From Eledone cirrhosa (Eukaryota), in assembly GCA_964016885.1 (NCBI GenBank), contig OZ024764.1, positions 10,292,001 to 10,356,000 of the forward strand: a DNA stretch of 64,000 nucleotides, read 5' to 3'. Shown here piece after piece: positions 3,210-56,360 of the stretch. Position 1 is the first letter of the stretch. Each line of letters begins with the position of its first letter. The translations under genes were made by a program, and so were the position numbers. The notes below the pieces were generated by a model. It was not told the origin of the DNA. It ran no database searches and saw only the letters and a program-made list of their open reading frames with translations.

Positions 3210-5570
3210 TATATGTAAGTATGTAGCTATGACTGCTATTTCTAGCAGGTTTATGGCTGTCCTGTAGACGCACAATAAAAACCGGAAGTGGCAGCCATTA
3301 AAAAACTTTGGCTTAAAATCAGCCAAAAGATTTTCAATAATAGTAAAATTTTATTTTTGACAAGGACGATAACTTTTGCCTTACTTAATCGCAAAAATCG
3401 AGGCAAAAATTTTGCGGGTGTGCAGTTTACACGTTAAAAATAAACCTGCTAGAAATAGCAGTCATAGCAACTCACTTACATATATTTATATATCATATAT
3501 ATATATATATATATGATATATATGGACACTTTAGAAATAGCAGCAAATAACAGAAAGAAGGACACACACACACACATATATATATATATACACACACACA
3601 CACACACATATATATATATGCCCCAGCACACACACATATATATATATATATATATACACACACACACACACACACACATATATATATATGCCCCAGCATA
3701 AACACACACACATATATATATATATGCCCCAGCATGGTGTTGGTCGATCGTCTAACTAAGGCCAATAATAAAATACTTCAAAATAAATTAAACACCCCTA
3801 AATCCGAGGTTACAACTTGGATTACTTAAAAGTCAGTAAAGCTGTAAAGATTCTATATTGTAAATAGGTGGTCGCAGGTTCGAATCCAGGCAAATCCTGA
3901 GAAAAATAACAAAAAGAAGGACAATGTAAAAATAGCAGCCATAGACGAGAGGAGGACACACACAAACACATACATGTATATATATATGTGTGTGTGTATA
4001 TGTTTGGCTGCTATATATATAGCGGTCAACACACACACACTCATATATATAGACACACACACACGTACATATGTAAGTGTGTGTGTTTGGCTGATATATA
4101 TATATATATATATATATATATATAAGAACAAAAGATGGTTAAAAGAGTTCCATGTATTTTATTATGCGCATTTCAAAAACAAATATCATCATGCAATAAT
4201 ATTTGTGCTTTCATCAGATAAAACAGGAAGACATGAAATGAAGGTTAAAAAGCACTTGTGGATAGTTCAGTTTTAAATCAACATATCATATATATATATG
4301 TTATATAAATATATGTGAGTTGCTATGACTGCTATTTCTAGCAGGTTTATTTTTAGCGTGTAAACTGCACACCCGCAAAATTTTTGCCTCGATTTTTGCG
4401 ATTAAGTAAGACAAAAGTTATCGTCCTTGTCAAAAATAAAATTTTACTATTATTGAAAATCTTTTGGCTGATTTCAAGCCAAAGTTTTTTAATGGCTGCC
4501 ACTTCCGGTTTTTATTGTGCGTCTACAGGACAGCCAGAAACCTACTAGAAATAGCAGTCATAACAACACACTTATGTATATTTATATATCAGGGATTCTC
4601 AACGAAGGGTGCACGCCCCACAGGGGGCAATTTGAATGTAATAGGGGCCAATTAGAAAGTGATATAATACGACCAAACTTCCAGTTACACTTTGTTCACA
4701 TGTTATCGTGTATCTGGCAGCAGCTACGAGAAGTTTGTTTTGATCATCGCGGCATCGTAGCTTTGTTTAATTAAAGCATTTCTACTTTATATTACAGTAG
4801 TAACACTTTTACAAGACTCGGTTTATTTCTTCTATATTAAAGGGGAACATAAATCTAATTTTTAAACGTTGAGGTGGGGCATGGAGCAAAAAAAGGTTTG
4901 GAACTACTGAAGACAACAAATCATCGTTTTTATTATTGTAATATATATATATTTATTTAATTATATTTATATATGTGTACAGCAGCCAAACACTCATACA
5001 TATAAGTGTGTGTGTGTGTGTCCTTCTTTCTTATGTTCGCTGCTATTTCTAAAGTGTCCATATATGCTAGAAATAGCAGTCAAATACCAACAAACAATAC
5101 CAAATAAGGACTAAACAAACTGCACACTCGCAAAATTTTCGTCTCGATTTTTGCGTATTTTGAAGTATTTTATTATTGGCCTTAGTTAGACGATCGACCA
5201 AGGCCATATATATATGTGTGTGTGTGTGTCCTTCTTTCCGTTATTCGCTGCTATTTCTAAAGTGTCCATATATATATATATATATATATATATGATATAT
5301 AAATATATGTAAGTGAGTTGCTATGACTGCTATTTCTAGCAGGTTTATTTTTAGCGTGTAAACTGCACACCCGCAAAATTTTTGCCTCGATTTTTGCGAT
5401 TAAGTAAGACAAAAGTTATCGTCCTTGTCAAAAATAAAATTTTACTATTATTGAAAATCTTTTGGCTGATTTTAAGCCAAAGTTTTTTAATGGCTGCCAC
5501 TTCCGGTTTTTGTTGTGCGTCTACAGGACAGCCAGAAACCTGCTAGAAATAGCAGTCATAACAACACACT
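3210..5570. mobile_element. Cluster of MITE-like elements of ~250 bp (3222-3472, 4316-4567, 5313-5563); repeated at 21760-24150
   Basis: Each copy is bounded by ~30-bp inverted repeats gctatgactgctatttctagcaggttt / aaacctgctagaaatagcagtcatagc; no coding capacity. Confidence 0.7.
4155..4225 (-). ncRNA. Minimal type I hammerhead ribozyme motif
   Basis: TGTTTTAT-CTGATGA-aagcACAAATATtattgcatgatgATATTTGTtttt-GAAA-TGCGCA-TA^ATAAAATA; long stem II, palindromic stem III TGCGCA. Confidence 0.75.
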
Positions 5571-6864
5571 TATGTATATTTATATATCAGGGATTCTCAA
5601 CGAAGGGTGCACGCACCACAGGGGGCAATTTGAATATAATAGGGGCCAATTAGAATATAATAGAGACCAAACTCCCAGTTACACTTCGCCTACACAGGTA
5701 ATCGTGTATCTGGCAGCAGCTACGAGAAGTTTGTTTACATTTTGATCATCGCTGCATCGTAGCTTTGTTTAATTAAAGGATTTTTATTTTATATTACAGT
5801 AATAACGCTTTTACAAGGCTCATCTTATTTTTATATTAAAGAGGAACATAAACATATTTTAGATGTTGAGGTGGGGCATGTAGCAGAAAGGGTTGGGAAC
5901 CACTGATATATATTTATTTATTTATGTCCATTCTGTTGTTTTTATTTCCTTCTCTGGGATTCTAGCATGTATATATATATATATATATATATATATATAT
6001 ATATATATATATACATATATATATATATATACATATATATGGAATTCAATGTCACTTGACCCAAACTCGAAAAAGCCGTCGCTGATCGTTGGGTTTATAA
6101 TTAAACTAAAGTGCTTCCAGTGTGCACCATAAGGTGATCATGATCGTTGGCGGCTGTTTACTGCATTGAGAGAGCCTAAGTCTAAAAGATATATATATAT
6201 ATAGCTGTCGAAACGGCCAGAGCTCAGCCGTCGGGGTCCAGAATATTTTCATATATATATGTGTGTGTGTGTGTGTATTCTGTGACATTTGTATTTATAA
6301 ATATATAAATAAGTATGTAATTATTTGAATAATAAAATCTGAGGTTTAAATATTTTATTTATTACCAATAACATTAAGAAAGGCATGAACACCACACCTT
6401 TTACTTCAATTTTGAAAGTAGGTTTATAAATATTAAATTTCATTAAACATTTGTAGCTGCTATGGTGGCTTGGTGGGAAATACCAGAAGCACTGGTGACC
6501 CTGGACTACGGTTCAATCCTGGGTGGGAAAAACTCACATATTAGACTTATTCAATATTTTTTTATTCTCAATTCTAGAGATAAATACATGTACATAAAGT
6601 AAATTGGTAGAGTCGTTAGAACATCAGATAGAATTCTTTGTAGTATTTTTTCCACTTCTCTGCTCTAAGTCCAAATCCCGCTGAGTTCAAATTTACTTTT
6701 CATCCATTCAGGGTTGATAACAAAGTACCATTCACGTACTAGGGTCAATTCTTCATTTTTATCTCTTTTTCACTCTCTATCCTTCTCTGGAAGAAATCTG
6801 TTTTATTCAGACCTGGAGCGGAGATGTGCTCTGCCAGGTTTTATAATGAGTATGTGTCTTACTG

Positions 6865-55965: not shown

Positions 55966-56295
55966 ACGTAGGTTTTTAATGAGGTTTCAAAAATGACGCA
56001 ACAATATGCATAAATATCTATCTGTCTGTATTAGAAACAAATACACACACACACACATATATATACATATATATGTATATATATATATATATTCTTTGGG
56101 TTTGCTCTTTCTTTCTCTTTTTTTCCTATTCCAACGGCTTAATTTAAATGTATGGGATTTAAACCTCTCCGACACTAATTTGCATAATAGACCAATAATA
56201 AAATTTATAACCCCACTATCCGGGATCTTGCAACAGACATGGTCGCATTCTTTTAAGGGTATGTCAATATTTGTTCATAAAACTGATCTATATTA

Positions 56296-56360
56296 TATTT
56301 TATCTGATGAAAGCGCACCATAATTTGCTTTGGTGTCCTTGAAATATGTATAATGAAATA
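56296..56360 (+). ncRNA. Minimal type I hammerhead ribozyme motif
   Basis: TATTTTAT-CTGATGA-aagcgCACCAtaatttgcttTGGTGtcctt-GAAA-TATGTA-TA^ATGAAATA. Confidence 0.7.

Follow-up and report, generated by a model that had tools for sequence, protein, structure and literature searches.

Type I hammerheads dispersed in an Eledone cirrhosa locus, probably carried by truncated 3′ ends of Penelope-like elements

The 64,000-nucleotide stretch of Eledone cirrhosa DNA analysed here (the window) contains short dispersed repeats that are, on balance, best read as 5′-truncated 3′ ends (pseudo-LTR pieces) of Penelope-like elements (PLEs), probably of the Hydra clade, each with a type I hammerhead for which cleavage at AUA^ is predicted in palindrome-paired dimers. 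The derivation from PLEs is very probable, and the assignment of the parent PLE to the Hydra clade is a reasonably probable one. The repeats are a structural variant of a known element type and not a new system; since hammerheads in PLE ends are known across animals, the class as such is ordinary. The new aspect would be a very abundant form that is missed by Rfam, does not fit the published traits of minimal hammerheads, and retains a mismatch across unrelated sequences.

The six copies reported in the initial annotation (c1 to c6) are all present, and each parses as an 8-bp stem I, CTGA(T/G)GA, a stem II of 30-36 nt, GAAA, 6 nt, TA^, and the second strand of stem I. All six thus show the type I order of core elements (CUGANGA, GAAA, UH) and an AUA cleavage site. 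The bare core pattern has nine matches in the window where 0.51 are expected, a number reached in 0 of 100 shuffles; these are c1-c6 and three more for which no stems were reported. c1 (4155..4225, minus strand), with the palindrome ATGCGCAT in stem III, lies in an insertion of ~160 nt (4125-4287) with (TA)n tracts on either side. c2 (22711..22781, minus strand) is its duplicate within a segmental duplication offset by ~18.5 kb (165/167 identical) and does not represent a separate insertion. The c3 arm (53295..53535, minus strand) consists of a head, the hammerhead at 53421-53485, a tail with a 14-nt deletion, and an extension of ~95 nt. Its inverted partner, the c4 arm (53551..53670, plus strand), has a head and a hammerhead at 53601-53665, followed by (TA)n 5 nt past stem I, and has no extension. 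c3 and c4 are the two arms of a single inverted insertion (110/115 identical) that forms a 245-nt fold-back. c5 (53953..54105, minus strand) is composed of a head, the hammerhead at 53994-54059, and a 41-nt tail that runs into (TA)n, and c6 (56258..56493, plus strand) of a head, the hammerhead at 56296-56360, and a tail with extension before (TA)n. Because c1/c2 were duplicated and c3/c4 are one inverted insertion, the six copies, though all real, go back to only four independent events. Matches to miRNAs in the Rfam search are explained by microsatellites and by the c3/c4 fold-back.

The initial inventory had overlooked two further copies and a separate family. c7 (47532..47597, plus strand; 23 bits, E 0.013) is a distant relative outside the training set in an insertion flanked by (TA)n. 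It retains CTGATGA, the palindrome ATGATCAT, and the AUA site, with U.U at 10.1/11.1 and C.C at stem II position 4, and carries CAAA in place of GAAA, that is, C for G12, so that as a ribozyme it is likely dead, judging from its sequence. The c7 insertion has on its 5′ side the motif TTGAGTACTC in inverted orientation (47385..47394, minus strand), with an imperfect outer hairpin. Only the 3′ half of c8 (57425..57484, plus strand; 16.7 bits, E 0.44) exists, comprising the end of stem II, GAAA, the palindrome ATACGTAT, the AUA site, the 3′ strand of stem I, a 27-nt tail, and (TA)n. The separate family is one of classical minimal hammerheads, found at 51776-51813 and 54226-54263.

The fold of the six copies is supported by covariation, as had been proposed. 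In the six-copy alignment (five distinct rows), 7 of 19 pairs show two-sided changes and 92.6% of cells are paired; this was matched by 0/500 shuffles and 0/6 slid registers, where the five related rows inflate the shuffle tests. All three helices have covariation support in c1-c6, from rows that are few and related. When c7 is added, two-sided changes occur at 9/15 pairs and stem II position 4 is paired in 0/4 lineages. Stem I has 8 bp, stem II 9-15 bp with a mismatch, and stem III 2 bp and a tetraloop. The stems II, described earlier as three unrelated sequences, turned out to be homologous, alignable, and co-varying, with 3 bp, a conserved C·Y mismatch, and a further helix. The C·C mismatch is kept by c7 in an otherwise unrelated sequence, which points to a structural role. 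Position 10.1/11.1 is A-U in c1, c2, c3, and c6, C.U in c4, and A.A in c5, in which N7 is G and the reported G-C swap within stem I was also seen. The stem III region is palindromic in 8/8 copies (one with G-U pairs); the palindromes are TGATCA, TACGTA, and the previously noted TGCGCA, TATATA, and TATGTA. CpG decay alone, in the absence of selection, can produce a series from TACGTA over TATGTA to TATATA. No conserved loop 1 was definable, as the extension of stem I differs among c1, c5/c6, and c7.

A stem III of 2 bp is unstable alone, and cleavage would thus require a pair of hammerheads, such as a tandem transcript provides. Forcing stem III in the monomer costs 1.6-2.9 kcal/mol, and the intermolecular duplexes have values of -2.2 to -10.5. 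From such models, intact copies would likely cleave at AUA^ as dimers joined by the 8-nt palindrome. The three-way junction is absent from the minimum-energy folds (z-scores -1.6 to +0.7). Comparison with the Rfam hammerhead models, which the initial annotation had suggested, gave no match at gathering score; at E values up to 10, no hammerhead was found in 53250-54400, a region in which the search also overlooked the classical minimal motif at 54226, and none was among the 150 of 311 matches listed. Read starts of run X10 at 54039-54041 were read as a RAD-library restriction site and not as cleavage.

The initial annotation had already suggested a Penelope-type origin, which is borne out by (TA)n ends, inverted partners, and an optional 3′ extension. 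A (TA)n tract starts at most 60 nt from stem I in 5/7 non-duplicate copies against a background of 0.18, the exceptions being c6 (133 nt) and c3 (none); the hammerhead lies 5-49 nt before (TA)n, or ~130 nt where the extension is present. (TA)n insertion is not unique to the Hydra clade. The extension is found in c3 and c6 and not in c4, and its ~95 nt compare with 30-40 bp described for PLE (EN+) copies, in which such an extension frequently occurs at a single end. Shared flanks were confirmed, with 89/112 matching columns between 53310-53420 and the reverse complement of 56375-56480 and a 17-nt tail motif adjoining 3/6 copies; in local alignments, upstream and downstream flanks are unlinked except between c3 and c6. 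Together, (TA)n ends, inverted junctions of variable length, and the optional extension are traits of PLEs.

Read-level evidence comprised 19,177 contigs of run X1 and 43,685 reads of X10 over 1,051 nt; X5, which bears another organism label, contributed 186 contigs, and X6 was excluded with only three. The family is very high-copy: over c3 and over the core and stem II of c5, X1 depths sum to 0.46-1.1 million, compared with 227-3,367 on the intervening stretch and about half (0.22-0.30 million) over the extension. In six of the 15 joints listed out of 48, an antisense piece of varying length is joined to a sense head (one contig each, with the intervening letters unread), which is the layout in Fig. 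2 of PMC8557442, as far as that source was available. A 5′-truncated copy with an inverted partner at its 5′ end is seen in c3/c4 and in six of the 15 joints.

The hairpin motif ACTC-[inner stem-loop]-TT-GAGTGCT occurs at 53362..53384 (minus strand), 36 nt past stem I of c3, and at 56410..56433 (plus strand), 49 nt past stem I of c6. Its descriptor, written after both sets had been seen, matches c3, c6, and one other (duplicated) unit where 0.06 matches are expected; in stability, the hairpin does not exceed shuffled sequences (z -1.8 to +0.1). By eye, the hairpin/GAGYRCT motif appears in 4/6 published Hydra-clade consensi, with G-C replacing A-U, which makes a Hydra-type parent likely. In the consensi available, its distance past the hammerhead is 31-39 nt for Hydra-2_Amil, Hydra-2_Ajap, and Hydra-1_Crog (one mismatch), and Hydra-1_Ajap has it at the 5′ start; the other two do not show it. 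A position 31-49 nt past stem I is common to the Hydra clade and the present copies in our own comparison with the available parts of PMC8557442. According to the same parts, type I hammerheads near the 3′ end, a near-palindromic stem III, a variable 10.1/11.1 pair (U.U in many Hydra families), and (TA)n insertion are likewise shared. The present copies differ in an 8-nt palindrome with AUA (published Hydra: 9-10 nt with GUH), a longer stem II, a C.Y mismatch absent from the Hydra rows checked, an 8-bp AU-rich stem I, and the lack of a linked ORF; the hammerhead of Hydra-1_oBim also has a different sequence. The Hydra clade is marked by the RT motifs RWK and DKT and a C-terminal endonuclease without CCHH. 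No RT or endonuclease linked to any copy was found among the 135 window ORFs scanned and the frames read, and the frames upstream of c6 and c7 show no convincing PLE protein.

In the proposed mechanism, a PLE RT/GIY-YIG protein would nick (TA)n DNA, and the RNA would be copied from one of two start points, ~30-50 nt or ~135 nt past stem I. Copying would stop early, frequently with a second, inverted copy left behind on the 5′ side. The fold would have been selected in master elements and not in the dead copies present here. A Poseidon PLE inserts in vitro without the need of hammerhead cleavage, and no RNA ends were found at the site (PMC11167929).

The label 'minimal' given initially does not hold by the published definition, for the stems are long and G10.1-C11.1 is absent. 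Judged by the available parts of PMC4209133, the present copies resemble the minimal hammerheads of metazoan PLEs in being dispersed, heterogeneous, co-varying, and palindromic at 15.2-16.2, and in opposite-strand pairs 100-700 bp apart with predicted dimer cleavage. They differ in the absence of G10.1-C11.1 (7/7 copies) and of an extra base past A9 in the co-varying register, in helix I (8 bp versus 4-5 bp) and helix II (9-15 bp versus 7-8 bp), and in having a stem III, of which minimal hammerheads have little or none.

An alternative that we regard as unlikely is a dedicated non-autonomous retrozyme-like unit of ~240 nt, whose hammerhead would yield monomeric or circular RNA mobilized in trans by PLE copies, with the window holding monomers and fragments. 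A related short unit at 1640..1975 (minus strand), which contains an inverted 3′ piece and has (TA)n tracts on either side and a duplicate near 20.2 kb, repeats the hairpin motif at a period of ~236 nt with no ORF between, and depth drops sharply, 14-fold, upstream of the fixed head. Animal retrozymes are moreover PLE derivatives with many monomers; as described in the accessible parts of PMC7229834 and 10.64898/2026.07.22.740005, they are likewise short, low-GC, non-coding, and PLE-related, with a type I hammerhead, a 2-bp stem III, and a palindromic tetraloop. However, the tandem organisation typical of retrozymes was not recovered, as 0/8 copies in the window are head-to-tail and no unit-length head-to-tail join occurs among 15 of the 48 joints. 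The sequence upstream of c6 is unlike the extension, the unit with the 236-nt period lacks an intact CTGANGA, and the present copies, unlike retrozymes as covered by these sources, are without a 4-bp stem II whose terminal loop could make the usual loop 1-loop 2 contact. Non-autonomy itself is not supported, since the ends of 5′-truncated autonomous elements look alike.

It is distinctly improbable that the repeats are ends from a different PLE clade (Neptune, Nematis, Poseidon, or Naiad), with a convergent or chance likeness to Hydra tails. Inverted partners, tails, and a bias for (TA)n are common to several clades, and a Neptune-type endonuclease fragment, identified by a full search (a word-indexed search with it gave none), lies 275 nt from c5; however, this fragment comes with a classical minimal hammerhead of its own (51776, 54226). 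As far as available, the 3′ ends of Naiad_Obim, _Ovul, _Omin, and _Esco are unlike the present repeats, and five motif strings had no match in the supplement at hand, in which line breaks may hide matches. The Naiad clade is defined by having no canonical hammerhead, whereas full cores and stems are present here, and the idea of a Naiad 'half-core' was rejected on those four cephalopod 3′ ends, which all differ. A non-catalytic repeat (e.g., a MITE-like fold-back), in which DNA-level symmetry and CpG decay would leave the hammerhead as an inherited relic, would suit the missing Rfam match, the weak folding, the c3/c4 fold-back, and c7 without G12, but is highly improbable given a core invariant in all six copies while stems swap pairs, inverted junctions of variable length, and c3-c5 cores varying only at N7 among the 40 variant rows listed (142 more exist).

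Returning to truncated PLE ends, their novelty in the lineage holds only in part: Octopus PLEs have been described, including one Hydra and three Naiad families, and the O. vulgaris repeat library has 190 PLE families, whereas the searchable literature showed no hammerhead of this form. Lunse et al. reportedly described short-stem-III hammerhead variants, which may cover the present form. The strict hammerhead pattern had no match in metagenome and viral contigs, and none of the loose-pattern loci elsewhere (17 and 6) has both stems; stem I fails in the two best (24.6 bits), and another lies inside a bacterial ORF.

If truly conserved, the hairpin would be a non-coding signature for the little-studied Hydra clade and a candidate RT start signal, and thousands of natural variants would be well suited to the question of why PLEs retain a ribozyme dispensable for insertion in vitro. 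A bolder proposal, which we consider decidedly unlikely, is an octopod-expanded subtype in which a new tertiary module would form where the conserved C.Y mismatch of the long stem II docks on the extended stem I. Its carriers would be dedicated non-autonomous Hydra elements of ~240 nt, the GAGYRCT hairpin would serve as the recognition signal of the clade's RT, and cis-dimers would be able to cut host pre-mRNA. Of the proline dehydrogenase exons located in the window, the one furthest upstream lies at 52378..52566 (minus strand), and c3-c6 and c8, being upstream of it, are presumably intronic. Within this presumed intron, c5 and c3 lie in sense orientation with their sites 573 nt apart and an identical palindrome.

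Six hammerhead motifs are present where the initial annotation had placed them, at 4155-4225(-), 22711-22781(-), 53421-53485(-), 53601-53665(+), 53994-54059(-) and 56296-56360(+) (copies c1 to c6), and each can be parsed as type I in the order 8-bp stem I, CTGA(T/G)GA, stem II of 30-36 nt, GAAA, six letters, TA^ and stem I again. The core pattern by itself matched the window nine times against 0.51 expected. In a MAFFT alignment of the six copies, 92.6% of cells are paired and 7 of 19 pairs have changed on both sides, a level not reached in 500 shuffles or in any slid register. 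The proposed conserved fold with covariation is thereby upheld, the test on five related rows being supportive rather than a probability. Because c1/c2 lie in a segmental duplication and c3/c4, identical at 110 of 115 positions, form a single insertion with inverted arms, the copies represent four independent events. The claim of shared flanks also stands (89 of 112 columns match, and the tail motif adjoins c3, c5 and c6). The duplication itself relates 1-7200 to 18531-25830 at an offset of ~18.5 kb, with blocks that are 93-100% identical, and is either real or an assembly haplotype.

The stems II, previously described as three unrelated sequences, turned out to be homologous and can be aligned in a gapless register in which 10.1/11.1 is followed by two pairs, then C.C or C.U as a mismatch, and finally six or more pairs; one extra base in c3 and c4 breaks this register further out. 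A model built from the six copies returned two relatives, c7 and c8. The former (47528-47597(+), 23 bits, rough E value 0.013) has different stem letters, with C.C at stem II position 4, an 8-nt palindrome and the AUA site kept, and is likely a dead hammerhead, judging from the C that replaces G12; c8 (57425-57484(+)) is a 3' half copy only. When c1, c5, c6 and c7 were compared, two-sided changes were found in 9 of 15 pairs, while stem II position 4 was paired in none of the four. Five stem III palindromes occur in the family (TGCGCA, TATATA, TATGTA, TGATCA, and TACGTA), and part of the stem III covariation may be mutational in origin because CpG decay can link three of them. The label "minimal" had to be dropped, as the G10.1-C11.1 pair, highly conserved in the minimal hammerheads of Penelope-like elements (PLEs) as far as PMC4209133 describes them, is absent in all seven copies here. 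Natural hammerheads with a stem II opening on U.U are among those reported in PMC3088659. The Rfam comparison gave no hammerhead for the AT-rich copies among the matches listed, and the known classical motif at 54226 was equally missed.

A Penelope-type link is supported by the joints and the one-sided extension, since an inverted 5'-truncated partner and such an extension are common to the AT-rich family and PLEs as drawn in PMC8557442. The supplement of that paper includes cephalopod Naiads and Hydra-1_Obim, all inserting in (TA)n, but the Naiad 3' ends compared and the Hydra-1_oBim hammerhead are unlike those of the AT-rich family, and five of its motif strings have no match in the supplement text. 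The 3' ends of Naiad_Obim and Naiad_Ovul (File S5) have short inverted repeats among which GAAA stands ahead of CTGATGA, an arrangement that would suit a permuted hammerhead.

A hairpin motif (ACTC, inner stem-loop, TT, GAGTGCT) lies 36 nt past stem I in c3 and 49 nt in c6, and was compared by eye with the six Hydra consensi of PMC8557442. GCTC, a 3-5-bp inner stem-loop, two bases and GAGCACT follow the hammerhead after 39 nt in Hydra-2_Amil and 31 nt in Hydra-2_Ajap; Hydra-1_Crog carries the motif with one mismatch at 36 nt, and Hydra-1_Ajap has it twice at its 5' start. None was seen in Hydra-1_Amil and Hydra-1_Obim, whose consensi stop 30-40 nt past the hammerhead. The descriptor, composed after both sequence sets were seen, has four matches in the window versus 0.06 in shuffles: those of c3 and c6, one at 1705 and the duplicate of the latter. 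Its 10-letter end alone has eight matches versus 1.73; two of the eight belong to a LINE fragment, and another lies inverted on the 5' side of c7. The hairpin's stability is not unusual. Against a Hydra assignment count the stems III of 9-10 nt with GUH sites in the Hydra elements published there, as well as the absence of any ORF linked to the AT-rich copies in the window. That the family is a non-autonomous element is a reading kept open by a short unit at 1640-1975(-), in which the hairpin motif occurs twice, ~236 nt apart, without an ORF. This unit (duplicate near 20175-20510) is flanked by (TA)n tracts and includes an inverted 3' piece; it has GAAA followed by a partial palindrome, lacks an intact 5' core, and is a candidate decayed non-autonomous Hydra-type element.

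Four sequencing runs were aligned on 53290-54340 at 80% likeness, which placed 19,177 contigs from X1, 186 from X5 and 3 from X6, besides 43,685 reads from X10. Over c3 the summed X1 depth, which is no copy number, came to 0.46-0.64 million; it reached 1.1 million in the core and stem II of c5 and 0.22-0.30 million in the extension, fell to 45,000 and 11,000 directly upstream of the head, and stood at 227-3,367 across 53758-53901. The individual X1 contigs listed had depths of 2.7-12.3. This suggests a copy number in the tens of thousands or higher. Between c4 and c5, a small segment with short inverted ends at 53697-53790 (X1 depth up to 122,000) represents another repeat family. In X1 and X10 the majority (69-90%) has A-U where c5 has a stem I G-C, together with U at 11.1, the remainder being c5-like. 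Among the 40 of 182 variant rows on which this picture rests, N7 is the only core position that varies (A also occurs), a variant at 54021 restores a C-G pair, and the 53621 variant together with a joint fragment fits, unphased, the replacement of C-G by U-A at position 6 of stem II. Of 15 joints listed (from 48), six run from an antisense piece, whose length varies, into a sense head, in one contig each and with the intervening letters unread; none is a unit-length tandem join, and the suggested retrozyme-like layout is not borne out among them. (TA)n starts within 60 nt of stem I in 5/7 non-duplicate copies (background 0.18).

A PLE protein would copy the element RNA into (TA)n by target priming, beginning from two start points, with early stops leading to truncation, and would leave inverted partners. 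As described in PMC11167929, two internal RT starts explain the optional tail of a Poseidon element, and hammerhead cleavage was dispensable for its insertion in vitro. Free folding of the copies did not recover the three-way junction, and stability was no better than that of shuffles. Since closing stem III in a monomer is computed to cost 1.6-2.9 kcal/mol and palindrome-palindrome pairing of two copies to yield -2.2 to -10.5 kcal/mol, the predicted energetics fit the dimer model described for PLE hammerheads.

The AT-rich repeats are real, and what is new is a structural variant, the PLE hammerhead class being already known. The repeat is probably within an existing library, given that PLEs account for 6.83% of O. 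vulgaris and fall into 190 families there (PMC13282606, where ribozymes are not mentioned in the parts covered). Literature on cephalopod hammerheads yielded nothing beyond Craig et al. (PMC8557442), the work of Lunse et al. lying outside the comparison, and searches of viral, metagenome, and prokaryote contigs brought up no convincing relative. Two eukaryote-like contigs (L004:2380-2490 and L005) carry a classical hammerhead-like motif followed after ~20 nt by a core with AAGC...CCTT and TATATA; this core has no stem I and is a chance or decayed one.

Eight exons of a proline dehydrogenase gene occupy the minus strand between 52566 and 33256, and the identity of one of them to Octopus sinensis (94%) and Argonauta (90%) marks the host as an octopod. 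No match to the first 136 residues of the enzyme turned up in the window, so that c3-c6 would be intronic; relative to the gene, c3 and c5 are sense and c4, c6, c7 and c8 antisense. In the pre-mRNA, c3/c4 (53421-53665) would give a 115-bp near-perfect RNA duplex that masks c3. A-to-I RNA editing occurs in cephalopods, and the predicted duplex is a possible substrate.

Classical minimal hammerheads with an ACGT palindrome lie at 51776-51813(-) and at 54226-54263 within 54142-54335(-). The latter is inverted to an adjoining broken GIY-YIG C-terminus at 54334-54630(+), which has 109 relatives, including GIY-YIG proteins with an upstream CxxC, and is read as Neptune-type. By read placement on 53290-54340, this family is about as abundant as the AT-rich one; it was rejected as its parent and is a separate family. 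Minisatellites occupy 43200-47130 (80-nt unit resembling a LINE 3' piece), 59450-62110 (49-nt unit resembling part of a SINE), and 6850-9800 (34-nt unit), and tRNA-like matches just over the Rfam score at 34559-34616(+) and 48411-48468(-) are probably SINE heads.
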